The notes beneath the pieces were generated by a model. That model saw only the letters and a list, made by a program, of their open reading frames with translations, was not told the origin of the DNA and searched no databases. The position numbers and the translations under genes were made by a program. Positions 1,376 through 45,940 of a stretch of 64,000 nucleotides of DNA are shown here, piece by piece (position 1 is the stretch's first letter; each line of letters opens with the position of its first letter). The DNA is from Alphaproteobacteria bacterium (GTDB taxonomy: Bacteria; Pseudomonadota; Alphaproteobacteria; Bin95), in the NCBI GenBank assembly GCA_022827685.1, contig JAJEIH010000014.1, positions 3,801-67,800 of the forward strand, written 5' to 3'.

Positions 1376-2055
1376 GCGGACCGGTCGCCGCCGAACCGGG
1401 GACCTGTCGGGAGGCAGGGGCCGGGGCGTCGTCGACGGACCCGGCTGTGGCGCAGCGTTTCCGACGACGATCACGAGTTCATGCTCGATGCCGCGATGTT
1501 CGACCGGATCGTGCCAGATCTGCTCAAGAAGGCGACGGGTGGGCACAACGCGGGCCGACGGCTGGCGTCGATCGAGGCATTGACGGGGCTCTTCCCGCCC
1601 GTAGGCCGGACGGTCCGGCGATGCAATTGCTTCCGCTCATCAAGGATCATTGCGAAAACCGCCGCCCTGAGGAGACGCTGGATCGGTTCCGGATGACTGC
1701 GGTGGGTTGGGCGGCCTATCGCGACGCTGCCGGCCAGTGAAGCGTGTCGCGCATCTGAGGCGGTATACACCCGCTCGCCGACGATATAACGGAACGGAGC
1801 ATGGGACGGCGGATCGGAGCCGGCGCTTTCCGATTGCGAGAGTTTACTTCGGCACGGCGTGCTGGCAGTGAACCGAACCGGGTTAAAGTTTGTCGTGCTC
1901 CGGCGGAGTGCTATCCCGTTGTACTGTTGGAGATACTCACTTTTTCTCACTTGAATCCTCCCTTAATTCCTCTCTATTGCGCTCCGGTATGCAGGCTTCA
2001 AACTGCTGCAACAATATTGTAGCGTGTGCAAAATAATTTGCAGTTTAATTTGTAA

Positions 2056-2101
2056 TTGGAGCAGATAATTTCACTACAAATAAATTAATTTGGAGCAGAT
2101 A
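2056..2101 (+). promoter_or_regulatory. Pair of 16-bp direct repeats (TAATTGGAGCAGATAA / TAATTTGGAGCAGATAT, 34 bp apart) in a ~200-bp AT-rich tract upstream of the adhesin gene
   Basis: Direct reading. The 1950-2150 tract is strongly AT-rich in an otherwise ~68% GC window. The repeats lie ~50-95 bp upstream of the adhesin start. Confidence 0.35.
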
Positions 2102-2148
2102 TTTGATATGCTTAAAGTGCATGGTCATGGCGTTATTTTGTCTCGAAG

Positions 2149-4548
2149 ATGGGGGTTGTTTTCATGCGCATTCGCTATCCCGGTTGGGGCAAGGAGGCGG
2201 CAGGCAAGTCCGACTGCAAGCCGCAGACGTCAAGGCGATACGATCCAGACAGGCGGGGGTTGCGGAAAGTTCGGTTGCAGCTGGCGGGATTGCCGACGCT
2301 GCTGTTCCTTTCGCTTGCGTTCTGGGCTCCTCCTCCGCTCGCCCCGGAAGTTATGGCGGCCGCCGGGAACGCCACCGGCAAGCCGGCCGTTTCGAGCGAC
2401 TCGATTGCCGGAAGGGGTTATCGGGCCACGGCGACGCTCGGCGATGTCGCAGACCGCGACGGGATCGATGCCGTGACGCTGAACTACACCTGGCTGCGAT
2501 GCAATGCGAACGGCTCCGGTTGCAACACCGAGATCGTGACGGGCGCGAGCTATACCCTGACCGAGGACGATGTCGGCTTGCGGCTCAGGCTGCGGCTCGA
2601 TTTTCTGGATGAGGATGGCGCGTCCGAATCGCTCACGAGCTTTCCCTGGCCTTCCCGCGCCAACAATCCGATCGGCACGCCGCCTGCGCCGGCCGCGCTG
2701 CAGGTGCTCGGGCACCGGCTGGACCTGACCTTCGACCATGACCTGCAGTCCGGCTCCGTTCCTCCGGCGAGCGCATTCGCGGTCGAGGTGGACGGCCAGG
2801 CGATGCCGGTTGTCGGGATTCACAAGTCTGGTGACCGCACTCTCCGCCTCACGCTGGCGCGGCGGGTGGCGCCGGACGCGACCGTGACAGTCGGCTATAC
2901 CCGGCCCTCCGGCGGGGAAGCGCAGGAAATACGAGGCCCCGGAGGGGTGCCGGCAGAGTCCTTCGCAGCCCTCGGCGTCAGCAATGTCACGCCCGAGAAC
3001 CAGGTCGCCGCGGGCGCGCCGGAGATAGAAGTCGTCAGCATTGCCGACAACGAGATTGTCCTGAGACTGCATGCGCCGGCGGACAATGGCGGTCTGACCG
3101 TCACCGGCTACCAGTACCGTTACGCCAGGGGGGCATCGGTGCCGGAGGCGACGGCATGGACCGACGCCGCGACGACGGCGGTCACGATTTCGGGCCTGCG
3201 CAACAGCACGGAATACACGGTCGAAGCACGGGCGGCGACCGGTCAGGGCACGGGTCCGGCGGCGAGCAGGGCGGCGACGACCACATCGCTTTCGCGCAAT
3301 GCTACCGGCAAGCCCGCCGTTTCGAGCGACTCGATTGCGGGGACGGGCCACCGGGCCACGGCGACGCTCGGCGATGTTGCGGATGCCGACGGGATCGATG
3401 CCGCGACGCTGAGCTACACCTGGCTGCGCTGCAATGCGGACGGCGACGATTGCGATACCGAGATCGCGACGGGGGCGAGCTACATCCTGACCGAAGACGA
3501 TGTCGGCTTGCGGCTCAGGCTGCGGGTCGATTACCTGGACGATGCGGGCACGTTCGAATCGCGCACGGGCTTTGCCTGGCCTTCCCGCACCGACAATCCG
3601 ATCCGCACGCCTCCTGCGCCGGCCACGCTGCAAGTGCTCGGGTACCGGCTGGACCTGGCCTTCGATCAAGACCTGAAGACCGGCTCCGTTCCTCCGGCGA
3701 GCGCATTCACGGTCGAGGTGGACGGCCAGGCGGTGGCGGTCGGTGATGTCGGCATGGCAGCCGCGCGCACCGTCCGCCTCACGCTGGCGCGGCGCGTGAC
3801 GCCGGACGGGACCGTGACGGTCGGCTATACCCGGCCTTCCGGCGGGGGCGTGCGGGAAATACAGGAGCCCGGAGGGGTGCCGGCAGAGTCCTTCACGGGC
3901 CGCAGCGTCAGCAATGTCACGCCCGTGAACCAGGCCGCCACGGGGGCGCCGGACATTTCCGGTACGGCGGAACTCGGCGAGACGCTGATCGCCGGCCCGG
4001 GCACCGTCGCCGACGCGAACGGGCTCTCGGGCGCCCGCATGTCCTACCAGTGGGTCCGCGTCGACGGGAACGGGGAGACGGACATAGCCGGGGCCACCGG
4101 CGGCTCCTATTCGGTGGGCGCGGACGATGCCGGCAAGCGCCTGAAGGTGAGAGCCTCCTTCGAAGACGACGCGCTCTATCCGGAAGCGCGCACCAGCGCG
4201 GCAACGGCGGTCGTGCCCGATACGGTCGGGCCGAGGCTGCTCGGCGGCGGCGCGACCGTCGCCGGCACGGTGCTGGAGTTGCAGTTCGACGAGCCGCTCG
4301 ACACGGCGTCCCGGCCGGCGGCGAGCGTCTTTGCGGTCAGCGTCGCAGGCTCGCCGGCGAGCGTGTCGGCTGTGGCGGTGAGCGGCGACACGGTGACGCT
4401 CACGCTCGCCTCGGCGGTGGGCCGGGGCGAGAGCGTGACGCTCGGCTACGGCGACGGCGACGCACTCGCGCTATTCGGATGCGGCAGCGGTCATCCGGTC
4501 TCTCGGTGTGGATCTCGCCGCTCCGGCGTTCCGTTCGGCGAGCGTTAA
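2149..4548 (+). CDS. Adhesin pseudogene fragment 1 (N-terminal; ends in an out-of-frame tail after the frameshift)
   Basis: ORF-track frame 1. Domain content as listed for the pseudogene. The last ~25 aa (LFGCGSGHPVSRCGSRRSGVPFGER) do not match the repeat pattern and are therefore read as out-of-frame tail. Confidence 0.7.
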   Translation: MGVVFMRIRYPGWGKEAAGKSDCKPQTSRRYDPDRRGLRKVRLQLAGLPTLLFLSLAFWAPPPLAPEVMAAAGNATGKPAVSSDSIAGRGYRATATLGDVADRDGIDAVTLNYTWLRCNANGSGCNTEIVTGASYTLTEDDVGLRLRLRLDFLDEDGASESLTSFPWPSRANNPIGTPPAPAALQVLGHRLDLTFDHDLQSGSVPPASAFAVEVDGQAMPVVGIHKSGDRTLRLTLARRVAPDATVTVGYTRPSGGEAQEIRGPGGVPAESFAALGVSNVTPENQVAAGAPEIEVVSIADNEIVLRLHAPADNGGLTVTGYQYRYARGASVPEATAWTDAATTAVTISGLRNSTEYTVEARAATGQGTGPAASRAATTTSLSRNATGKPAVSSDSIAGTGHRATATLGDVADADGIDAATLSYTWLRCNADGDDCDTEIATGASYILTEDDVGLRLRLRVDYLDDAGTFESRTGFAWPSRTDNPIRTPPAPATLQVLGYRLDLAFDQDLKTGSVPPASAFTVEVDGQAVAVGDVGMAAARTVRLTLARRVTPDGTVTVGYTRPSGGGVREIQEPGGVPAESFTGRSVSNVTPVNQAATGAPDISGTAELGETLIAGPGTVADANGLSGARMSYQWVRVDGNGETDIAGATGGSYSVGADDAGKRLKVRASFEDDALYPEARTSAATAVVPDTVGPRLLGGGATVAGTVLELQFDEPLDTASRPAASVFAVSVAGSPASVSAVAVSGDTVTLTLASAVGRGESVTLGYGDGDALALFGCGSGHPVSRCGSRRSGVPFGER

Positions 4549-5091: not shown

Positions 5092-6084
5092 ATGGCACGC
5101 AAGGGACCGGGCAAGGCATTCAGGGAAGGCATCAGCCTCAAGGCGCTGATGCGAATGTTCCCGACCGACGATGCGGCGCGGGAGTGGTTTGAAGGGCATA
5201 TCTGGCCGCAGGGTCCGTATTGCCCGCGTTGCGGCAGCTTCAATGTCCAGTGCGGCATCAAGCACAAGACGATGACGCACCGCTGCCGCGACTGCGAAGG
5301 CAAGCCGCGTTTCAGCCTCAAGACCGGCAATGTCATGGAGGGTTCCAAGCTCGGCTACCAGACATGGGCCATCGCCTTCTATCTCGCCATGACCGGCTTG
5401 AAGGGCGTCTCGTCCATGAAGCTGCATCGGGACTTGGAGATTACGCAGAAATCGGCGTGGCACCTTTCGCACCGCATCCGCAAGGCGATGGAGAACGGCG
5501 AGGTTCCGATGTTCCACGGCCCGGCGGAAGCCGATGAGACCTACATCGGCGGCAAGCGCAAGAACATGAGCAACCGGAAGCGGAAAGAGCTGGCCGGGAC
5601 GGGTCGCGGGGCCGTGGGCAAGGCGGCCGTCGCGGGCGTGAAGGACCGGGAGACGAACAAGGTCGCGGCGCGGCGGATGGAAGAGACCGACGCGAGCGCG
5701 CTCCAGTCCTTTGTCCGGGAGCATGTCGAGCCGGGCGCAACGCTCTACACCGATGAAGCCGCCGCCTATGCGGGAATGCCCGAATACGACCATGAAGCGG
5801 TCAAGCACTCGGCCAAGGAGTTCGTGCGGGGCATGGCCTCGACGAATGGCATGGAGAGCTTCTGGGCCGGTCTCAAGCGCGGTTTCGTCGGCACTTTCCA
5901 CAAGTTCAGCGAAAAGCACTTGAGCCTGTATGTCGCGGAGTTCGCGGCCCGGCACAATATCCGCGACAAGGACACAATCGACATGATGGGCGCGGTTGCC
6001 CGGCGCGCAGTCGGAACCCGCCTCCGCTATCGTGACCTCATTGCCGACAATGGCCTGCCGTCCGGCGCAAGGCCCGCCGCATGA
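5092..6084 (+). CDS. IS1595-family (ISXO2-like) transposase
   Basis: N-terminal zinc ribbon (CPRCG...C..C), DDE-type ISXO2-like domain, and the conserved ...NGMESFWAGLKRG... motif typical of IS1595-family transposases. Confidence 0.85.
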   Translation: MARKGPGKAFREGISLKALMRMFPTDDAAREWFEGHIWPQGPYCPRCGSFNVQCGIKHKTMTHRCRDCEGKPRFSLKTGNVMEGSKLGYQTWAIAFYLAMTGLKGVSSMKLHRDLEITQKSAWHLSHRIRKAMENGEVPMFHGPAEADETYIGGKRKNMSNRKRKELAGTGRGAVGKAAVAGVKDRETNKVAARRMEETDASALQSFVREHVEPGATLYTDEAAAYAGMPEYDHEAVKHSAKEFVRGMASTNGMESFWAGLKRGFVGTFHKFSEKHLSLYVAEFAARHNIRDKDTIDMMGAVARRAVGTRLRYRDLIADNGLPSGARPAA

Positions 6085-7511
6085 CGGCCCCGAATTTCGC
6101 GTCCGGCACAGTCTGGACCGGCGACAACCTCCCCATCCTTCGCGGCATGAATTCGGAGTGCGTGGACCTCATCTATCTGGACCCGCCCTTCAACAGCAAT
6201 CGGGACTATGCCGCCCCGATTGGGAGCGAAGCGGCCGGGGCAGCGTTCAAGGACACTTGGACGCTCTCCGATGTTGATGTGCATGAGCATGGGGAGCTTG
6301 CCGACAGGAATCCGGCCGCATACGCGGTGATCGAGGCCGCCCGGCAGGCGCACGGCAAAGGGATGCAGGCATATTGCATCATGATGGCGGTGCGCCTCAT
6401 GGAAATGCGCCGAGTGCTCAAGCCTACGGGCGCGATCTACCTCCATTGCGACCCGACGGCCGCCCACTACCTCAAGCTGCTGCTCGACGGGATATTCGGG
6501 CGCGGCAATTTCCAAGCGGCAATCACATGGCGGCGCACCTACGCGCACAATGACAAGATGTTCGGCAGCCTGTCCGAACAGATCCTCTGGTATGGCAATG
6601 GCGATGGGATCACGCGGAACATTGATGCTGTCGTGGTCCCGTTTTCAGCCGACGAACTCAAGAAGAAATATCCGCACCGGGATAAACGCGGGCAGCATTT
6701 ACGCGACAATCTCATGGGGCCGGGAACAACGGACGGGGAAAGCGGCAGGGCATGGAAGGGCTGCGACCCTACGGAATACGGAAGATGCTGGAGCGCGCCG
6801 AAGACCGGCAAATACGCCCGCTATCTCAACGAAGTGCTGTTGCCCGGCTATCTGGCAATCGAGGGCGTCCATGACCGGCTGAATGCACTGGACGACGCGG
6901 GCTTTATCCACTGGACGAACACCGGCGTTCCGCTGCTCAAGCGGTATGTCATGCCGGGACAGGGGACGGTTCCAGGCGACATATGGACGGACGTTCCGCC
7001 GCTGTCGCGCTCCACAAAGGAACGGACGGGCTATCCGACGCAGAAACCGCTCGCCCTGCTTGAGCGCATCATCCGGGCGTCGAGCAATCCCGGCGGCCTG
7101 GTGCTCGACCCGTTCTGCGGTTGTGCAACGGCCCTGGTGGCGGCGGACAGGCTGCAACGGCAGTGGGCGGGGGTCGACCTGTCGCCGCTCGCCGTGAAGC
7201 TGGTGGACGAGCGGATCGCCGGGGACCGCGGCCTGTGGGGCGGTGCGACCGTCCCTGACGCCCCGCCAGTGCGAACCGACCTTGGCGAGCTTCCGAACTA
7301 CCGCACGCACCGGCATCGGCTCTATGGCGAGCAGGAGGGCGTATGCGTCGGGTGCGAGACGCATTTCCCGTTCCGCGTCATGGAGGTGGACCACATTCTG
7401 CCCCGGTCGCGCGGCGGGACCGACCATGCCGACAACCTTCAACTGCTCTGTTCCGGCTGCAACCGCAGCAAGGGCGGGCGCACAATGGCCGAATGGAGGG
7501 CCGCAACATGA
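6081..7511 (+). CDS. DNA methyltransferase (beta-class N6-adenine/N4-cytosine type) fused to a C-terminal HNH endonuclease domain; IS passenger gene
   Basis: Motif IV DPPF (LIYLDPPFNSN) near the N-terminus precedes motif I FxGxG (LVLDPFCGCATALVAA), which is the beta-class order. The C-terminal ~70 aa carry an HNH signature (CVGCE...HILPRSRGGTDHADNLQLLCSGCNRSKG). ATGA overlap with the transposase stop. Confidence 0.85.
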   Translation: MTAPNFASGTVWTGDNLPILRGMNSECVDLIYLDPPFNSNRDYAAPIGSEAAGAAFKDTWTLSDVDVHEHGELADRNPAAYAVIEAARQAHGKGMQAYCIMMAVRLMEMRRVLKPTGAIYLHCDPTAAHYLKLLLDGIFGRGNFQAAITWRRTYAHNDKMFGSLSEQILWYGNGDGITRNIDAVVVPFSADELKKKYPHRDKRGQHLRDNLMGPGTTDGESGRAWKGCDPTEYGRCWSAPKTGKYARYLNEVLLPGYLAIEGVHDRLNALDDAGFIHWTNTGVPLLKRYVMPGQGTVPGDIWTDVPPLSRSTKERTGYPTQKPLALLERIIRASSNPGGLVLDPFCGCATALVAADRLQRQWAGVDLSPLAVKLVDERIAGDRGLWGGATVPDAPPVRTDLGELPNYRTHRHRLYGEQEGVCVGCETHFPFRVMEVDHILPRSRGGTDHADNLQLLCSGCNRSKGGRTMAEWRAAT

Positions 7512-7941: not shown

Positions 7942-7990
7942 AAGTGCATCTAGGCCGGACTATCGCCGATTCGGTCTATGTCGTCAAGCG

Positions 7991-8017
7991 AAAGTGGCAC
8001 TTTCGTATATAATCCCC
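7991..8017 (+). repeat. IS right terminal inverted repeat (IRR)
   Basis: See mobile_element entry. Confidence 0.7.
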
Positions 8018-8025
8018 CATCAAAC
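8018..8025 (+). repeat. Target-site duplication, right copy (CATCAAAC)
   Basis: See the left-copy entry. Confidence 0.7.
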
Positions 8026-10794
8026 CCGGTGAACGTCGGGACGGGCGCGACATACAGGCTCGCTGACGCGGATGCGGGCAAGCGGATCAAGGTGGAGGTG
8101 AGCTACGGAAACGCCACGGTCGGCAGCGCAGCCTGGCCCTCCAGCGGGAGTGTCCGCAGCCGCGAACGCTGCAATGCGCCGGTCCTGTCCGGAGGGGCCG
8201 TGCTGGTCGGATCCGGCAGGACGCTTGCAGTCGGGTCGTACAGCAACAACGAAGGCGACTACTGGGGATATTACGAGGGTGGAAGGACCGGCTTCGGCGA
8301 ACTGGTTTCAGGGGTCAGCTTTGGCGAACTGGGGGACGCCTCGTTCTCGATCGGCGGCGCCGACTATGAGCTGAAAGCGGTCGCAAGCGCCGACAGACCC
8401 GGCGGCGAAGTAGAGATGTACGCCATGCTGGACAAGGACCTTCCGGCCGATCACCGGAGGACGCTGAAGCTGCATGTCTGCGGAGTGGCATACGCTTTCG
8501 GCAAGGCGACGAAGCATGACACCCATGCTCAGTACCAATGGCCCACTTTCCTGGGCCTGGCAGGAAGCGCCGAGCCCACGATCTACCTCTCCCGCGATGC
8601 GGTCGCGCCGACTGTCACTTCGGCCACGGCGCACGGCACGGCGCTGACCGTCACCTTCAGCGAAGAACTGGGCGCGGCCGACTCGCTTTCGAATGCTGCC
8701 TTCTCGGTTGTCAGGACGCCCGAGGGTGGCAGCGAGGAGGCGGTCGCGCTGAGCGCCGACGCCGCCCCGTCCATCGACGGCGCCACGGTGACGCTGACGC
8801 TCGCCTCGGCGATCGTATCCACCGACAGCGGCATCGCGGTGAGCTATACCGCGCCCGACACAGGCAGCGGAAACAGGCTTGCCGACAGGTTCGGCAACGA
8901 GGTCGCGGGCTTTGCGGGCCGGGCGGTGTCGCATGGGACCGCCGACGCGATCCCCGGGCTTTCGGTCGCCGACGCCCAGGTGCGGGAGGGTCGGGGCGCG
9001 AAGCTTGTCTTCACGGTCAGGCTCGACCGGGCGCGCGAGACGCATGTGAGGGTGGATTACGCGACCCGCGACGACACGGCGGTGGCGGGCGCGGATTATA
9101 TGGCCAGGTCGGGCACGCTCACCTTTGCCCGGGGCCAGACCAGAAAGACGGTCGAAGTCACAGTCCTGGACGACGCGCACGACGAGGGCAGCGAGACGAT
9201 GACGTTTGCGCTTTCGAACGCCAGAGGCGCGCGAATCGCCAATGGCGAGGCGACGGGGACGATCAGCAATTCGGACCCGCTGCAGAAACTATGGCTCGCG
9301 CGCTTCGGGCGCACTGTGGCCTCCCAGACGGTCGAGGCTCTGGAGGGGCGTTTCGCCATCGCGTCGGACGCCTCGCCGCGCATGACGCTGACGATAGCGG
9401 GCCAGACCGTGGACCTCTCGCGGATCGGCGACGGTCAGGCGCTGGCGGGGACGCTGACAGGCCTTGCGCGGGCGTTCGGCGCGCCGGACGTCTCGGCGGC
9501 GAACGACAACAGGCCGTTCGCGCGGCGCGGTATCGGTGGGGCGTGGAACGAAGCCGGCGTCTCGGCGCCGGCGCGCGGGATGACGGCGCGCGAGCTTCTG
9601 TCCGGGAGTTCGTTCCACTTCACGACCGGAGATGCGTCGGGCCTGGGCGGAGCGATGACCGGTTGGGGCAAGGTGCTGTCGGGCGGGTCGAGCAGTTCGC
9701 TGTCCGGCGGGCTGTCGTTGGCGAGCGAGACGGCGACCGGCGTGCTCGGCATGGACTGGGAGCGGGACAGGCTTCTGGTCGGGGTGGCGCTGTCGCGAAG
9801 CGTCGAGACGGGCAGCGCGTCGTTTGCGCCGACGGGGTCGCAATACGACATCGAGGGCTCGGTTTCGATGGTGACGCCCTACATGCGCGTGCGGGCGGGC
9901 GAGCGGCTGTCGCTCTGGAGCGCGGTCGGTTCGGGCAGCGGTTCCTTGTCGCTCTCGCATGGCGGCGGCTCGCAGATTGCGGACATCGCCATGCGGCTTG
10001 CGGCTGCGGGCGGTCGTGCGGAGTTGCTGCGGCCCGGGGCAGGCGGCGGGTTTGCGCTGGCGCTGAAGACGGATGCGTTCTTTGTGCGGAGCGAATCGGC
10101 GCGGGTATCGACGCCGGGCGTGGGCAACCTCGCGGCGGCGACGGGCGATGCGAGCCGTGTGCGGGCGGTGATGGAAGGGTCGCGGGCGTTCGCGCTGTCG
10201 GGCGGCGGCGCGCTGGAGCCGTCGCTGTCGCTCGGTCTGCGCCATGACGGCGGCGACGCCGAGACCGGCACGGGCGTCGAGGTCGGCGCCGGGCTTTCGT
10301 GGTCCGCGCCGACGGCGGGGTTGACCTCGGACCTGCGCCTTTACGGGCTGGCGTCGCACGAGGCGGGCGGTTACGACGAATGGGGGGCGAGCGGTTCGCT
10401 GCGGCTGGCGCCGGATCCGTCCGGTCGCGGCCTGTCGCTGTCGATGACGCCGTCATGGGGCGCCCGGGAACAGGCCGGGCGGCTGTGGGGCGCGGCGCCC
10501 GGCGCATTGGCCGGGAACGGCGGCGGGGGGCAGCCGGGCGGGCGCCTCGACACGGAACTCGGCTACGGCCTGCCCCTGTCGCACGGCATGACCGGCACGC
10601 CCTATGCGGGCTTCGGGTTCGGCGAGGCCGGCGCCCGGAGTTACCGCCTCGGCTGGCGGCTTGCGTCGGACCGGCTGCAATCCTTCTCCCTGGACATCGA
10701 GACGACCCGCCGCGAAGCCGCAAACGCCGCCGGACCGGGGTTCGGGGCGGCGGCAGAGCACGGTATCGGTCTCAGGCTGGCGGCCCGCTGGTAG
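8026..10794 (+). CDS. Adhesin pseudogene fragment 3 (C-terminal passenger + Calx-beta + autotransporter beta-barrel)
   Basis: In frame with the CCG GTG AAC that follows the right target duplication. Calx-beta signature. ~500-aa Gly/Ser-rich beta-domain ending in W. Confidence 0.75.
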   Translation, partial: PVNVGTGATYRLADADAGKRIKVEVSYGNATVGSAAWPSSGSVRSRERCNAPVLSGGAVLVGSGRTLAVGSYSNNEGDYWGYYEGGRTGFGELVSGVSFGELGDASFSIGGADYELKAVASADRPGGEVEMYAMLDKDLPADHRRTLKLHVCGVAYAFGKATKHDTHAQYQWPTFLGLAGSAEPTIYLSRDAVAPTVTSATAHGTALTVTFSEELGAADSLSNAAFSVVRTPEGGSEEAVALSADAAPSIDGATVTLTLASAIVSTDSGIAVSYTAPDTGSGNRLADRFGNEVAGFAGRAVSHGTADAIPGLSVADAQVREGRGAKLVFTVRLDRARETHVRVDYATRDDTAVAGADYMARSGTLTFARGQTRKTVEVTVLDDAHDEGSETMTFALSNARGARIANGEATGTISNSDPLQKLWLARFGRTVASQTVEALEGRFAIASDASPRMTLTIAGQTVDLSRIGDGQALAGTLTGLARAFGAPDVSAANDNRPFARRGIGGAWNEAGVSAPARGMTARELLSGSSFHFTTGDASGLGGAMTGWGKVLSGGSSSSLSGGLSLASETATGVLGMDWERDRLLVGVALSRSVETGSASFAPTGSQYDIEGSVSMVTPYMRVRAGERLSLWSAVGSGSGSLSLSHGGGSQIADIAMRLAAAGGRAELLRPGAGGGFALALKTDAFFVRSESARVSTPGVGNLAAATGDASRVRAVMEGSRAFALSGGGALEPSLSLGLRHDGGDAETGTGVEVGAGLSWSAPTAGLTSDLRLYGLASHEAGGYDEWGASGSLRLAPDPSGRGLSLSMTPSWGAREQAGRLWGAAPGALAGNGGGGQPGGRLDTELGYGLPLSHGMTGTPYAGFGFGEAGARSYRLGWRLASDRLQSFSLDIETTRREAANAAGPGFGAAAEHGIGLRLAARW

Positions 10795-11039
10795 GCGCAG
10801 CGGACGGTCCCGGCGCGCGGACGGCAGGGACCATTCAACAGCAACGGCTGGACGGAGGCCCGCCGCATGCATGAGGGAACCCGCGCCTTTTGACCTGCCG
10901 GCCTCACACATCTGCCTGCGGCGGGTTCGCCTCGTATGACACCCGCCTGCCCCGGTCGTCCGTTCCCGTCCTCCTCCTGAGCAGCGGCGCGGCCGTGTAT
11001 CGAAGGAGCTTGCAATTATCCTGTCGATCCAACGAGTTG

Positions 11040-11760
11040 TAAGAAAACTGCCCGGTATTTCCATCTTTTGTTCCTTCATGAGCTTGACTTTCAGCGAAAT
11101 GGTGTAGAATAGGCATGAGAGAAAGGCGGCTCCCGGGGCCGCCTTTCGGCTTTTCTGCAGAAAGCATGGCTGGGGGCCGCAAACCCCCGGCGCGAGCGGA
11201 CGGGGAAGGTACGTCCTCCGCCCGGCCCGCTGCCGCGCGCACGGGCGCGCGGGCAATCAGGCGCGCGAGCCGCGCCGCCGCGAAACGCCCGCCCGCCCGC
11301 GCACGCAGCCCCGCCCGCGATGACGCGCGAAACAGGGACACCCCGTCCCGCCCTTGGCTTGGAAGGAGATGGCATGGATGACCGAAACCAACCCCCGACC
11401 CCGCTGGCGCCGGACACGCCGGGCTCGCCCATCTGCGCCAACTCCTCGCCGTAATCGACTGGAGCGTCACCTCCCGTGAGCCGCAACCCGGCGCCGCCGG
11501 CGGAAGGCCCCGCAGCGCCCCTCCATGACACATCATGACATCTGCCGTGGAGGGGCCGGACCCGCTGCCCCGCGCACGCGGGCGCGCACGCACAGGCAGG
11601 CGCGCATTATGCGCGCGGGAGAAGCGCTCCTCCGGGGGGCGTCCGGGACCATGGACCGAAAGGAAGCTGCAATGCCTTGCGAATGACCGGGGCGGAGACC
11701 GGCCCCATGACGAAAACATGACACATCATGACATATCCTGACACTTCCGCCGGTCTCCCG
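11040..11760 (+). repeat. Intergenic repeat element, copy A (+ orientation; longest and most divergent copy; two heptad clusters)
   Basis: Shares with copies B and C: a TTGAC(T/A) promoter-like module (11084-11110), the block GCGCGGGCAATCAGGCGCGCGAGCCGCGCCGCCGCGAAACGC, the block CGCGATGACGCGCGAAACAGGGAC, and CATGACA heptads at 11524/11534 and at 11706/11717/11727/11737. Confidence 0.6.
11706..11743 (+). promoter_or_regulatory. Array of four 10/11-bp-phased CATGAC(A/G) heptads (copy A; a second mini-array of two heptads lies at 11524-11540)
   Basis: catgacgaaaa catgacacat catgacatat cctgacactt, read directly from the sequence. Confidence 0.55.
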
Positions 11761-11841: not shown

Positions 11842-13536
11842 TCACTCCGGCTTGCGGAAAAGCTGGATGCCCCAGGCCAGCTGTCCGGCATCCGCGGCTT
11901 TCACCCAGTTCTCGAGACCGACGGCCATCCTGTCGAGATATTCGGCCGAGGCGCCGTTTTCGCGCAGCCTGTCGTAACCGGCCATAAGGTCTTCACGCAC
12001 CCGGTCGTAGTGGGTGCGGAGATGGCCGGTCATGTCCTCCTGCGCCAGCACCTCGAAACCCAGCGCCTGCGCCGCCTCGCGGTAGAAGCGCATGGAGCCG
12101 AGGCTGTTGAGCTGGAGCCTGTCATACACGGGCTGGAGCACGCCGTCCGGCACGTCGTCCGCCTGCATCGGGTCGGTAAAGACGAAATGGCCGCCCGGCT
12201 TCAGCACGCGCCGGACTTCGGCCAGCACCCTGTCCCGCTGGTCCGAGTGCAGGATGGCGTCCTGGCTCCATACCGCGTCGTAGCTGGCGTCCGGGTCGGG
12301 GATATCCTCGAAGACGCCATGCACTACCGATATCCGGCCGCCGAGCTTGGCCTGCCGGTTCCTGGCCCGGTTGGTGTCGTTCTGCGTCTCGGAGATGTTC
12401 AGGCATGTAGCCGTGCAGCCGGTCCGCCCGACGACCCGCCGCATCGAGCCGCCATAGCCGGCGCCGATGTCCAGGATACGGGTGTCGGGGCCGATGTCCG
12501 GCAGCATCGCCATCATCCGGTCGACGGTTTCGGCGCTGGCCTCGCGAATGTCCCGTGTCGTCTCGTAAATGCCGAGATGCAGGTCCTCGCCGCCCCAGAC
12601 CATCGAGTAGAACGTGTCGGCGTCGTCGCTGTCGTAATAGTCCTCGGTGATGTCGCGAACGTCGCTCTCGCCCTCCTCGCGGACGCCGCCGCCCCAGCGC
12701 ACGACATGCAGCGTGGACTTCTCGGCGACATGAATGAAGAAGTCCGGCTCGTTCTCGGCGTAGGTCTCCTGGAAGTCGCCATAGGTGCGCACCCGCGCGA
12801 AACCGGCCTCGCTGAGCAGGCGGCGCACATAGTTCTTGCGGATCGGACTGAGATTGAGCGTGTAGCCGGAGCCGTCGGCGAAGCTGTATTTCATCCTCAC
12901 GAGGCTGTCGTCGATATATTCGGGCTCCGCATTCACCTCGTCGCCGCAGTAATAGTATTTGTGCTTGGACGAGAAGCCCTCATCCAGCATGGCGTCGTAA
13001 TTGCGCTGGTCCAGGATCAGCATCCCGTCATGCTTCAGCGCGGCGTAGAACTCGGCCAGAGCGCGGCGGCGGTCCTGCTCTTCATGCAGGTGGGTGAACG
13101 AGTTGCCGAGGCAGATGATCGCGTCGTACTTGCCCTGGATGTGACGGTTCAGCCAGCGCCAGTCGGCCTGGACGGTCTTGAGGATCAGCCCGCGCGACCT
13201 TGCGTTCTCGAACGCCTTGGCCAGCATCGTCGCCGACCCGTCGCTCGATGTCACGTTGAAGCCGGCCTCGGTCAGCCGCACCGAGTGGAAGCCCGTGCCG
13301 CAGGCGACGTCCAGCACGGTTTCCTTGCCGCGGGCGCGCAGCACGTCGATGAAGAACTGCCCCTCGCTCTCGGCGCGCGCCATCCAGTCGATCAACTCGT
13401 CCCACTTCTCCACGAAGGAGAGGATGTACTCGCCGCGGTAGAGATCGGTATCGCGGTCCTCCAGCGGGTCGTCGCTGTAGCTCTGACGGTCGAGCGCGAA
13501 TTCCGTGTTCCTCGTCAACAGGGACATATCTGGCAT
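11842..13536 (-). CDS. Fused glycine/sarcosine N-methyltransferase - sarcosine/dimethylglycine N-methyltransferase (glycine betaine synthesis from glycine)
   Basis: Two class-I SAM methyltransferase domains (VLDVACGTGFHS... and ILDIGAGYGGS...). The 564-aa length and domain order match the fused GSMT-SDMT enzymes of halophiles (for example Actinopolyspora-type). Confidence 0.75.
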   Translation of the reverse strand: MPDMSLLTRNTEFALDRQSYSDDPLEDRDTDLYRGEYILSFVEKWDELIDWMARAESEGQFFIDVLRARGKETVLDVACGTGFHSVRLTEAGFNVTSSDGSATMLAKAFENARSRGLILKTVQADWRWLNRHIQGKYDAIICLGNSFTHLHEEQDRRRALAEFYAALKHDGMLILDQRNYDAMLDEGFSSKHKYYYCGDEVNAEPEYIDDSLVRMKYSFADGSGYTLNLSPIRKNYVRRLLSEAGFARVRTYGDFQETYAENEPDFFIHVAEKSTLHVVRWGGGVREEGESDVRDITEDYYDSDDADTFYSMVWGGEDLHLGIYETTRDIREASAETVDRMMAMLPDIGPDTRILDIGAGYGGSMRRVVGRTGCTATCLNISETQNDTNRARNRQAKLGGRISVVHGVFEDIPDPDASYDAVWSQDAILHSDQRDRVLAEVRRVLKPGGHFVFTDPMQADDVPDGVLQPVYDRLQLNSLGSMRFYREAAQALGFEVLAQEDMTGHLRTHYDRVREDLMAGYDRLRENGASAEYLDRMAVGLENWVKAADAGQLAWGIQLFRKPE

Positions 13537-28993: not shown

Positions 28994-29296
28994 TCAGTCC
29001 AGCACCTGCGCGACATCGACGACACGGCGCGTGCGGACGACGCGGTCCTGCCAGACCCGGTCGAATTCCGCAATGAGCTCCGCGATCGCTTTCGAGCCCG
29101 TGGCCTTCCTGGCGGCCGCGAGATCGGTGAACTGGTAGAAGGCGACATGCGCGCCGTCATCGCCCCAGCCGCGAAACGCCTTCTCCACGCTGAACGCGGC
29201 CTTCGCATCCGGCAGGTGCTCCTCGGCGTACCAGCGGTCGAAGGCGTCCCGGTCGCTCTCGGGCACCTCGGCGCGCACGATCAGATAGGCAGTCAT
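28994..29296 (-). CDS. Small hypothetical protein (~100 aa)
   Basis: ORF with plausible start MTAYLIVRAEV. No confident family assignment. Confidence 0.4.
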   Translation of the reverse strand: MTAYLIVRAEVPESDRDAFDRWYAEEHLPDAKAAFSVEKAFRGWGDDGAHVAFYQFTDLAAARKATGSKAIAELIAEFDRVWQDRVVRTRRVVDVAQVLD

Positions 29297-29449
29297 CGGC
29301 AATTTCCTGTCGAATGAACGCTGCGGGCCAGTCTGTGACACCGCTTGCGAACAGGCAAGTGCGCTGCCGGTTGCGGCACGGCGTCACTCGAAGCCGAGCG
29401 GCTCCGCGTCCGCAGCCCTGCCGTCCTCGAAACGAAGCGCTGCGCGCCG

Positions 29450-29880
29450 GCGCTACCCGGAAGCGGTCTCTTGTTCGCATTTTTTGAAATAATTCTCGAA
29501 ATATGATTGACATAAGAAACTCTACATTGATATGGTGCAGGAGGAAGGAAGCGGCATCCGCGCGGGGCCGCCCCTTCTACCGGTTCGCGCCGGCGCGAAA
29601 AAAACCCGAAGAAACGCAAGGGAGAAGTGCGCCCTCTGCCTCGCGCGCGCAATCAGGTGCGCGAACCGCGCCGGCGCTAACGCGCGCTGACGGGCGGGCG
29701 CGCGATACGCGCGAAACAGGGTCCCGCCGCCATCTGCAATGTTCGCCGCGTTCGGCGCGGCGGCGGGACGAACGGAACGGAGAAGGACGGCAAGGAGGGA
29801 CCATGACAAAACATGACATTTCCGCAGGGGTGCATGACAAAACATGACACATCATGACACTCCAGGCGGAACGACTCCCA
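29450..29880 (+). repeat. Intergenic repeat element, copy B (+ orientation), immediately upstream of and co-oriented with the alpha/beta-hydrolase gene at 29910
   Basis: AT-rich tract + TTGACA-18-TGnTATGGT promoter-like module (29507-29536), GCAGGAGGAAGGAAGCGGCATCC, the block CGCGCGCGCAATCAGGTGCGCGAACCGCGCCG, the block CGCGATACGCGCGAAACAGGGTCCCG, and five CATGACA heptads. Confidence 0.65.
29802..29859 (+). promoter_or_regulatory. Array of five CATGACA heptads (starts 29802, 29812, 29833, 29843, 29853; spacings 10, 21, 10, 10 bp), 50 bp upstream of the hydrolase start codon
   Basis: Read directly from the sequence. Helical-phase spacing suggests binding by a direct-repeat-recognising regulator. 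Confidence 0.55.
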
Positions 29881-29909
29881 AGCTGCGGAAATCCGCGTAG
29901 GTTCGCCCC

Positions 29910-45164: not shown

Positions 45165-45289
45165 GGCTCGGTTCCCCTCGGATCGATGGAAGCGCCGCCG
45201 GCGCGTGTAAGCGATGGACCCCGGACCCTCAAGCCCCGATTTGTCGCATGAGCGGGACTGGCGGCGCGGCTGCACCTTCGCGCGGCATC

Positions 45290-45900
45290 GGGGAGGCGCC
45301 CGGAAGTGTCATGGAATGTCATGGTCTGTCATGCGATGTCATGATCGGCATGTTTGCGGCACATATCCTGTAGTCCTTTCGGGCATGACGAGAGCTGCGG
45401 CCCTCGGGCCCCGTTCGCCGTCCCCCGCGAAGGCGGGGACCCGTCCCTGACTCGCGGTGGCATCGCAGTCGGTGGAGGTCGGCCGGGCCATGGGGCTCCC
45501 GAGAGAGCCGGGGCCGGCCTCCGGTTCTTCGCTTTGCTCCGTCCGGGGTGACGGACCGGGGCGCCGCATGTCGTTCCTTCATCTCGTTTCGTTCCACTCC
45601 GCTCCGTTCTCCCCGCCGCCGGCCCGCCAGCGTCGGGACCCTGATTCGCGCGTATCCTGCGCGTGCCTGTGCCCGCGCGGGCGCGCGTATCGCGGCGGCG
45701 CGGTTCGCGCGCCTGATTGCGCGCGCGAGACGCAGGACGCACTTGTCCTGTCGGCTCCTCACGTGTTTTTTCGCGCCCGCGCGGCCACGGGAAGGAACGA
45801 CTCCCAGGATGCCGTTTCCTTCCTCCTGCTCAATCTGGTGGTTGAGTGCTCTGGTGTCAAGCTTAAAATACGAAATATTTCTTATTTTTTGAGCAAGCTA
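45290..45900 (-). repeat. Intergenic repeat element, copy C (inverted orientation), immediately upstream of and co-oriented with hppA
   Basis: The reverse complement carries the AT-rich tract + TTGACA-17-CAGATT module (45832-45860), GCAGGAGGAAGGAAACGGCATCC, the block CGCGCGCGCAATCAGGCGCGCGAACCGCGCCGCCGCGATACGCGCG, the block CGCGAATCAGGGTCCCG, and the heptad array. Confidence 0.65.
45307..45353 (-). promoter_or_regulatory. Array of four perfect plus one degenerate 10-bp-phased heptads (TGTCATG on the + strand, CATGACA relative to hppA), ~145-190 bp upstream of the hppA start
   Basis: tgtcatggaa tgtcatggtc tgtcatgcga tgtcatgatc ggcatg, read directly from the sequence. Confidence 0.55.
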
Positions 45901-45940
45901 TTGATTTTGTTCCGGTCCGAAACGTCAGGCGTCCGGGCAC

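Follow-up and report, generated by a model that had tools for sequence, protein, structure and literature searches.

The window analysed here, 64,000 nt of contig JAJEIH010000014.1 (positions 3,801 to 67,800 of the forward strand; assembly GCA_022827685.1, Alphaproteobacteria bacterium), carries three intergenic copies, A, B and C, of a modular element with relatives dispersed through other genomes. We propose that they belong, as degenerate and non-autonomous members, to a cassette family, selfish and phage-derived, of one uncultured Alphaproteobacteria clade, copies B and C being devoid of an open reading frame (ORF) and copy A keeping an ORF remnant; we judge this proposal to be evenly poised between right and wrong. 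The family has a common architecture, many copies, a protein cargo, an empty site at one locus and a covarying 5′ hairpin, P1; its nature would be selfish and phage-derived. The copies lie at the following positions.

11030-11760, + strand: copy A, intergenic
29399-29900, + strand: copy B, intergenic
45262-45925, − strand: copy C, intergenic

A sequence-only reading of the window had placed three copies at these sites, with their modules in a conserved order, and both points held. Direct reading and alignment gave the same ordered modules in all three copies: first an AT-rich tract that includes a TTGAC(A/T) −35 box, next a leader rich in GC, then a pair of conserved blocks and finally CATGACA heptads. 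A profile search with the leader core returned exactly three matches in the window (E-values 8e-38, 2.5e-36 and 1.5e-24). The AT-rich tracts, which the same reading had called striking in a GC-rich genome, have 31-41% GC vs 67.9% for the window. CATGACA was found 22 times in the window (3.9 ± 1.9 expected), with 13 of the 22 inside the three elements, and the heptads were the sole 6-mers in the window with at least three repeats at a 10-11 nt period.

Further copies beyond the window had been set beforehand as a check. The search of species-representative genomes with the 24-nt core yielded, among the matches listed, more than 107 stretches in about 20 metagenome-assembled genomes (MAGs). The hosts are MAGs labelled ‘Alphaproteobacteria bacterium’, plus one ‘Defluviicoccus sp.’ and one Bryobacterales; the last is represented by L049 (CBDBZZ010000043.1; other loci are cited by L numbers), a contig with several tandem element units binned as Bryobacterales (Acidobacteriota), which reflects either mis-binning or transfer beyond Alphaproteobacteria. 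Across 112 copies, TTGAC(A/T) occurs about 150 nt upstream of the core, preceded by a conserved AT-rich region of about 70 bp, and the heptad arrays lie 100-950 nt downstream. About 270 CATGACA heptads were counted downstream of the core vs 11 upstream, and the reverse form stayed at background level. The spacing is tight: 187 of 251 adjacent pairs are exactly 10 nt apart, with 11 at 21 nt and six at 20 nt. The spacers themselves vary (AAA 68, TCG 19, TTT 18, and others). The AT-rich region of 58 of 91 copies contains a GAAAT(A)ATTTC-like palindrome, a count for which the control is weak. The units are polar, promoter-bearing and 430-1400 nt long. The sequence-only reading had recognised no described repeat in them, which agrees with our searches: there was no match in Rfam, in the PLSDB plasmids (queried with copy B) or among viral contigs, and a literature search by motif and topic found no description of the cassette family.

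The sequence-only reading missed that intact relatives hold an ORF of their own between the leader and the heptads. The three copies in the window have thus decayed from cassettes with a single gene. In most copies the leader is followed by a Shine-Dalgarno-like sequence and an ATG, and intact members encode one of two kinds of protein. The T-type cargo (L015, L041, L048 and L063) is a protein of 320-347 aa, typically about 320 aa, whose N-terminus matches Pfam Terminase_2 (residues 11-82, E 2.8e-13) and the PHROG terS families. The N-terminal domain of its AlphaFold2 (AF2) model matched the DNA-binding domain of SF6 G1P in Foldseek (4zc3/2cmp, template modelling (TM) score 0.82-0.85, 39% identity). 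Alignment to annotated phage terS genes extended only over residues ~8-110; the predicted local distance difference test score (pLDDT) is mostly below 75 past residue 60, and a full-length match to 3zqq was weak (E 3.8e-3, TM 0.17-0.38). The T-type family has many members, which are 67-91% identical to the query; single chromosomes can hold several paralogues, and the alignment of 25 diverse members has many invariant columns. In 24 of the 25, the protein ends in ..HD(I/K/R)(S/T/A)*, encoded by the CAT-GAC-Ann-nCA-TGA of the heptads, so the T-type gene runs into the array. The M-type cargo (L007, L008 and L023) is a multi-copy, acidic protein of about 200 aa (MTATDP...) with an internally duplicated β-hairpin-helix motif. 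Pfam recognises no domain in it, PHROG gives a weak match only, and its AF2 model (pLDDT 73) has no neighbour in the PDB with E <1. No protein similarity was detected between the T and M types. In 41 distinct copies, a 45-nt module preceding the heptads can be read as an ORF of 15 codons.

We also observed contacts between arrays and neighbouring genes. In L127, the called start of modA (molybdate-binding protein) overlaps the T-type stop by ATGA inside the heptad array (8939-8942), and at about a dozen loci the ORF that follows can be extended, without a stop, back to an ATG of the array.

Part by part, the window copies are built as follows.

11030-11110, + strand: copy A, AT-rich tract and promoter module, 41% GC, with −35 TTGACT (11084-11089), −10 TAGAAT (11105-11110) and a 15-nt spacer
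11121-11157, + strand: copy A, 5′ hairpin P1 with a 12-bp stem (11121-11147), then GGCTTTTCTG, terminator- or attenuator-like
11253-11339, + strand: copy A, leader core GCAATCAGGCGCGCGAGCCGCGCC (11253-11276) through block iv CGCGATGACGCGCGAAACAGGGAC (11316-11339), placed by alignment and profile
11361-11489, + strand: copy A, Shine-Dalgarno-like GGAAGGAG, then the remnant of a decayed M-type (MTATDP...) gene with an open frame of 33 codons (11378-11479)
11524-11540, + strand: copy A, first mini-array, two CATGACA 10 nt apart
11556-11743, + strand: copy A, second partial unit, with 80% identity to L107 and 71% to L006
29399-29536, + strand: copy B, left part, absent from the empty site by comparison with L132; AT-rich from 29465 (31% GC)
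29540-29604, + strand: copy B, P1 hairpin (29540-29581) and CGCGCCGGCGCGAAAAAAA (29586-29604)
29649-29769, + strand: copy B, core (29649-29672), block iv (29700-29731) and the hairpin CCCGCCGCC...GGCGGCGGG
29770-29859, + strand: copy B, purine-rich Shine-Dalgarno-like AAGGAGGGACC (29792-29802) fused to the heptads, no cargo ORF
29860-29900, + strand: copy B, tail past the last heptad, common to the differently typed L129 element and absent from the empty site L132
45827-45925, − strand: copy C, AT-rich tract (34% GC) and −35 TTGACA (45855-45860), with a poor −10 box
45625-45826, − strand: copy C, P1 hairpin (45790-45826), core (45697-45720) and block iv (45634-45660)
45387-45624, − strand: copy C, conserved hairpin and Shine-Dalgarno region, then a variable filler with nested short repeats
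45307-45386, − strand: copy C, 45-nt fixed-length 3′ module with the 15-codon ORF MPERTTGYVPQTCRS, then the heptads

The −35/−10 module with a 17/18-nt spacer described earlier is a good description of copy B only (TTGACA-18-TATGGT, −35 at 29507-29512 and −10 at 29531-29536), the sole copy that satisfies the sigma-70 scan. The promoter module of copy A went unreported by that scan owing to its 15-nt spacer, and copy C has the poor −10 box noted above; that the elements carry a promoter-like module nonetheless stands. Block ii, GCAGGAGGAAGGAARCGGCATCC, is confined to copies B (29537-29559) and C (45807-45829), as had been stated. The extra segment and second array attributed to copy A are also present, the segment consisting of the ORF remnant and the second partial unit. 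Residues 51-76 of the intact M-type protein match 11409-11489 (tblastn, 56% identity, E 1.8e-4), a region also similar to L007 at the DNA level. The second unit contains the GC-rich, core-like GCGCGCATTATGCGCGCGGG at 11600-11619 and heptads at 11706 (CATGACG), 11717 and 11727, with a degenerate CCTGACA at 11737. Copy B, with its leader fused directly to the heptads, and copy C are both ORF-less. The heptads of copy B are arranged as two plus three (29802 and 29812; 29833, 29843 and 29853), and the TGA of the 15-codon ORF of copy C falls within the first of four heptads (45337-45343, 45327-45333, 45317-45323 and 45307-45313).

As reported earlier, copy A is an orphan between two convergent gene ends, those of the ORFs at 7978-10794 (+) and 11842-13536 (−). 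Copy B occupies a divergent intergenic region and ends 50 nt before the ATG (29910) of an Abhydrolase_1 hydrolase gene, part of a hydrolase/thiamine pyrophosphate (TPP)-enzyme operon. Copy C lies on the minus strand between a major facilitator superfamily (MFS) transporter gene and hppA; about 140 nt separate its last heptad from the hppA ATG (45164), and the final ~100 nt of the gap are conserved flank that does not belong to the element. Copies B and C had been said to abut start codons; both do point at the next gene, but across gaps of 50 nt and about 140 nt.

Some short sequences are nested within or around the copies. The filler of copy C holds the GC-rich repeats GTCACCCCGGACGG (45539-45552) and CCCGCCTTCGCGGGGG (45422-45437), which together have 30 matches in 15 loci; in OZ244041.1, clusters of them precede copies of the element. 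This is a REP-like family distinct from the element. Gene callers place 200-270-aa ‘genes’ over elements (L129 1386-1988, L126 7093-7914 and L128 80-751), and some of these are probably artefacts. An ORF of 100-106 aa without a Pfam match (window 28994-29296, − strand) is kept between the TauD and hydrolase genes, with equivalents in L108, L129 and L132. Elsewhere, the most AT-rich stretch of the window (2000-2110, 24% GC) contains the direct repeat TAATTTGGAGCAGATA twice and lies upstream of a gene (2368-3956) with 930-bp tandem repeats of 86-87% identity.

The leader probably acts as RNA, judging from the pattern of substitutions. In 56 sequences, the seven pairs of P1 are formed in 92% of cells, five of them with double changes, and the 25 double-change cells exceed the 9.8 ± 2.4 of shuffled alignments (0/500); slid controls were 38-73% paired. 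Many P1 cells are G-U pairs, which would be A-C on the opposite strand, so that the transcribed sense strand is the folded one. The hairpin before the array has some compensatory changes (AUGC/GCAU vs AUGU/ACAU). Single-sequence folds were modestly better than shuffles (z = −3.2 and −2.0). The earlier suggestion of a transcribed structured RNA is thus borne out for the 5′ hairpin by compensatory and G-U changes, but not for the GC-rich core. The conserved core is (CG)n-like and offers no usable covariation, because its composition lets everything pair and the exact 24-mer retrieval removed variation. In copy A, P1 (11121-11147) and the T-rich tail GGCTTTTCTG resemble a terminator, and the tail is absent from B and C. 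Pairing of the GGGGTCTCC motif with the leader GGGAGAC was rejected, as one side changes while the other stays in some copies. At the gathering score, Rfam reported only three tRNAs in the window; a permissive search with copies A and B returned chance-level matches only (e.g., MH_s15, 19.9 bits vs a threshold of 123), and ten related loci matched only group II intron models.

Such introns occupy two places in the element. One, matching D1D4-3, D1D4-1 and Intron_gpII and containing a reverse transcriptase/maturase ORF, occupies an identical insertion point in five copies of one MAG (L060 5736-6322; L042 2047-3942, − strand; L102 7400-7986, − strand; L046 and L070), four of them on contig_4/contig_5 of isolate 1c27fcd0. 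This intron sits about 10 nt past the P1 hairpin and replaces the promoter, which fits introns homing to terminator-like hairpins. Another group II intron (D1D4-6, 160 bits) starts directly after the last heptad in different MAGs (L021 7615-7839; L025, ~+522 from the core), and the 3′ end of the array appears to serve as an intron homing site.

The genomic setting of the family argues against a simple promoter cassette. Of the 88 copies that could be scored, 48 are followed by a co-directional gene and 40 by a convergent one (heuristic gene calls), so orientation to neighbours is near random and the portable promoter/leader cassette put forward earlier does not hold as a general rule. Recurrent neighbours belong to common metabolic families only, with no functional theme, and T-type genes lie singly among housekeeping genes (L122, L126 and L127), as do the M-type genes. 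Two insertion sequence (IS) cases were seen: an IS-type transposase gene interrupts the element just past the core in L005 (~1975-2400), and the heptads of L015 are followed, at a distance of 150 nt, by an IS110-family transposase gene (5207-6232, − strand).

Comparison of orthologous loci revealed turnover. The gap at the hydrolase locus is 90 bp in L132 vs 613 bp in the window; the L132 hydrolase is 77% identical, and this single empty site has junctions that are not placeable to the base. The same site holds three subtypes in close relatives, with an A′-type element in L129, an intact M-type cassette in L128 and copy B in the window. At the hppA locus of the close relative L107, the flanks are 85-87% identical and the element 49-85%; the leader core and the Shine-Dalgarno region are best kept, and the AT-rich/promoter part of copy C is only 49-59% identical to its orthologue. 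Near-identical copies occur at distant loci of one genome (L007/L008, 98%; L048/L063, 96.7%). These observations indicate gain or loss and recombination among copies and do not reveal the mechanism. Retro-copying via an RNA intermediate was considered, with L048 and L063 diverging sharply in the promoter spacer, but L007 and L008 share the promoter and ~55 nt upstream of it, so an RNA intermediate is unsupported.

In the proposed scheme, a complete cassette would open with an AT-rich regulatory tract of ~70 bp and a promoter of sigma-70 type; a structured, GC-rich leader RNA of ~330 nt would follow, and after it a Shine-Dalgarno sequence, one ORF (for a ~320-aa terminase-like protein of SPP1/SF6 G1P type or a ~200-aa acidic protein) and a CATGACA array at a 10-bp period, usually with the stop codon of the ORF inside the array. 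The promoter would transcribe the leader and whatever follows it. By analogy to pac/cos sites, the terminase-like protein from intact copies would recognise the phased heptads in cis and in trans, and heptad binding by the T-type protein is best regarded as putative. The ORF-less copies of the window would then be non-autonomous riders, from which incidental transcription may enter neighbours such as the hydrolase gene or hppA. Candidate routes to new copies are recombination or gene conversion among copies, transduction and a trans-acting factor. A bolder version, which we find doubtful, takes the family for a minimal transduction-hijacking element, composed of a terS-like gene, a promoter and leader of phage-late type, a pac-like CATGACA array and many gene-less, signal-only copies. 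Whenever a gene transfer agent or helper phage was active, packaging would be nucleated by the TerS-like protein at dozens of positions on the chromosome, and the cassettes would be spread together with adjacent host DNA.

A phage link is also touched by the viral contigs. Heptad triplets gave 12 matches there, in unrelated phages of 28-64% GC. In one contig of 64% GC (L114, 11056-11252), a 64-aa helix-turn-helix gene ends (...HDNS*) in an array of three CATGACA at a 10-bp period. The array has a RusA/replication module on one side and a ParB-methyltransferase gene on the other; past the latter comes a terS-like gene, 1.3 kb downstream of the array. We consider this arrangement suggestive of a phage link, not decisive. 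A PhoB- or LexA-type operator was rejected for the heptads, as their period is 10 and not 11 and GTTC-N7-GTTC is inconsistently present, judged by the consensus sequences of these operators.

Several results weigh against the cassette proposal. The C-terminal two thirds of the T-type protein (~240 aa) appear unlike any terminase and are modelled, with low confidence, as long helices only, and the nearest three phage terS loci are without such phased repeats. The 24-mer core has no match among the 2.9 million viral contigs of IMG/VR. Clustering of 514 neighbouring ORFs revealed no recurrent transposase, integrase or phage structural gene, and no terL or capsid gene recurs near the copies, including the T-type loci L122, L126 and L127. 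The relatives were fetched from species-representative genomes with the exact 24-nt core, and core conservation is thereby overstated. The two ends of the element, the AT-rich promoter tract and the heptads, form no terminal inverted repeats, and the one empty site (L132) has no clear target duplication, so mobility is supported only indirectly. We must also note that the heptads are strictly oriented to the transcript and overlap stop codons, and that ORF-less copies keep the promoter, leader and Shine-Dalgarno sequence; this polarity and retention of signals suggest an RNA- or translation-level role over a pure DNA site.

The same polarity, stop-codon overlap and retained promoter and leader are why we keep an RNA-centred explanation, possible but unlikely in our view, in which a structured RNA with a CAUGACA tail acts as a sponge or regulatory small RNA, whether by titrating or recruiting an RNA-binding protein or by pairing to targets, and the ORFs are secondary. 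The covariation of P1 with sense-strand G-U pairs, the compensatory changes in the hairpin before the array and the confinement of the heptads to the transcribed strand agree with it, and repeated short motifs are a hallmark of protein-sponge RNAs such as CsrB/RsmZ. However, the strict 10-nt period with its 21-nt (two-turn) jumps fits a face of the DNA helix better than RNA, no terminator-like site was seen past the arrays of B or C, and the elements evolve faster than their flanks; the (CG)n-like core without usable covariation, the lack of an Rfam match and the lack of a known candidate binding protein count against it too. The explanation offered by the sequence-only reading, a portable promoter and 5′ leader recruited to drive or regulate the downstream gene (the hydrolase/TPP-enzyme operon or hppA), we consider improbable. 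Copies B and C point at the next gene, the three subtypes at the hydrolase locus of three relatives all face the same direction, and the T-type stop of L127 meets the called modA start. Yet 40 of the 88 copies, including copy A, face the 3′ end of a convergent gene, intact copies have an ORF of their own, neighbouring genes have no functional theme, and the hydrolase of L132 is served by a 90-bp region without the element. Moreover, hppA keeps ~100 nt of conserved non-element DNA upstream and therefore probably has its own promoter. All that remains of this idea is an incidental effect at certain loci.

That the copies are inert relics, i.e., decaying duplicated phage-derived genes kept uniform through gene conversion and without present function, seems decidedly improbable. 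Decayed, frameshifted and repeat-ridden fillers, fast divergence at the orthologous locus and the tolerance of introns and IS elements inside copies would all be expected of relics, but motifs, order and spacing are kept in more than 100 copies and about 20 MAGs while the intervening sequence turns over. Purifying selection on the intact T and M genes is clear, as illustrated by the conserved T members described above. Finally, it is very improbable that small proteins are the product, either from the 15-codon ORF ending in the first heptad (MPExxxxYxPxAC(R/K/G)(S/T)) or from short MPKT.. ORFs. The 41 distinct modules do have exactly 15 codons, a conserved ATG, an in-frame TGA and no indels, with a Shine-Dalgarno-like sequence before the ORF in minimal copies. 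However, third codon positions are no more variable than the others (entropy 1.06, 0.98 and 0.88 by position), so a conserved peptide is unsupported; besides, the peptide sequences differ between subfamilies, copy B is without the module, and in 44 of 92 copies that frame contains no ORF.

Should this reading of the family be right, genomes of an uncultured Alphaproteobacteria clade each contain tens of copies of a compact element type unaccounted for by Rfam or by the MITE, REP and phage-satellite families. Its promoter-like module and conserved ~330-nt leader, with the covarying 5′ hairpin and no Rfam counterpart, may represent a new RNA family. A terminase-like protein combined with phased repeats is suggestive of a strongly reduced phage parasite or of host-wide packaging signals, and either would bear on DNA mobilisation in these communities, with possible high-frequency gene transfer. 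For annotation, the elements matter in that they place promoter-like modules beside genes such as hppA, attract group II introns and IS elements, and give spurious ORF calls, e.g., 100-270-aa ‘genes’.

Among known systems, small terminases recognise phased repeats at pac/cos sites (SPP1, SF6 G1P), and pacA of phage P1 has arrays of TGATCA/G hexamers. The cassettes share with them the G1P-type N-terminal helix-turn-helix of the T-type protein and short direct repeats phased at about one helical turn, at or in a terS-like gene, and the likeness is limited to this DNA-binding domain and these repeats. In contrast, no terL, portal or capsid gene is nearby, terL adjacency in a morphogenesis operon being absent from the T-type loci; the C-terminal 240 aa appear unrelated to terminases; the copies are dispersed by the dozen, many of them gene-less; and each has its own promoter and 330-nt structured leader. 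PICIs of the SaPI type carry their own TerS to redirect helper packaging, and phage satellites are 5-18 kb long, with an integrase, att sites and regulatory or replication genes. The cassettes resemble them as chromosomal, non-viral elements encoding a TerS-like protein and, presumably, its recognition site. They differ in their length of 0.4-1.4 kb, at most one gene, no integrase and many copies per genome; T-type genes stand single between housekeeping genes (L122, L126 and L127), unlike the gene sets of PICI, P4-like, PLE or PICMI satellites.

The lambdoid late promoter PR′ makes a short terminated leader that is read through only after Q antitermination. The A-type subfamily offers a parallel, as its TTGACT-15-TAGAAT is followed within ~40 nt by a GC hairpin and a T-rich tail, ahead of a long leader, and in T-type cassettes a terS-like gene comes after the leader; however, the terminator-like tail is absent from B and C, and neither an antiterminator nor a qut-like site was identified. 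A cis-regulatory leader would be consistently upstream of and co-oriented with its gene, which the 48 co-directional and 40 convergent copies are not.

As in miniature inverted-repeat transposable elements (MITEs), short ORF-less cassettes keep both end modules of the longer, ORF-bearing ones and outnumber them. Unlike in MITEs, the ends are dissimilar, without terminal inverted repeats, there is no transposase, and target duplication is not evident; in place of a transposase-encoding autonomous parent, the long copies encode a Terminase_2-domain protein or a Pfam-less one. REP/BIME sequences are imperfect palindromes of 20-40 nt in clusters, whereas the cassette units are 430-1400 nt, polar and promoter-bearing. 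The pneumococcal BOX, Neisseria Correia, enterobacterial ERIC and rhizobial RIME repeats are intergenic, multi-copy and mosaic or modular, with a variable number of sub-units, and can be transcribed. The cassettes share the intergenic location, copy number, modularity and variable sub-units but, set apart by descriptions only, are much longer, have a complete promoter and an AT-rich tract, are strictly polar and derive from protein-coding units. The family thus constitutes a previously undescribed group of dispersed, partly non-autonomous genetic elements.

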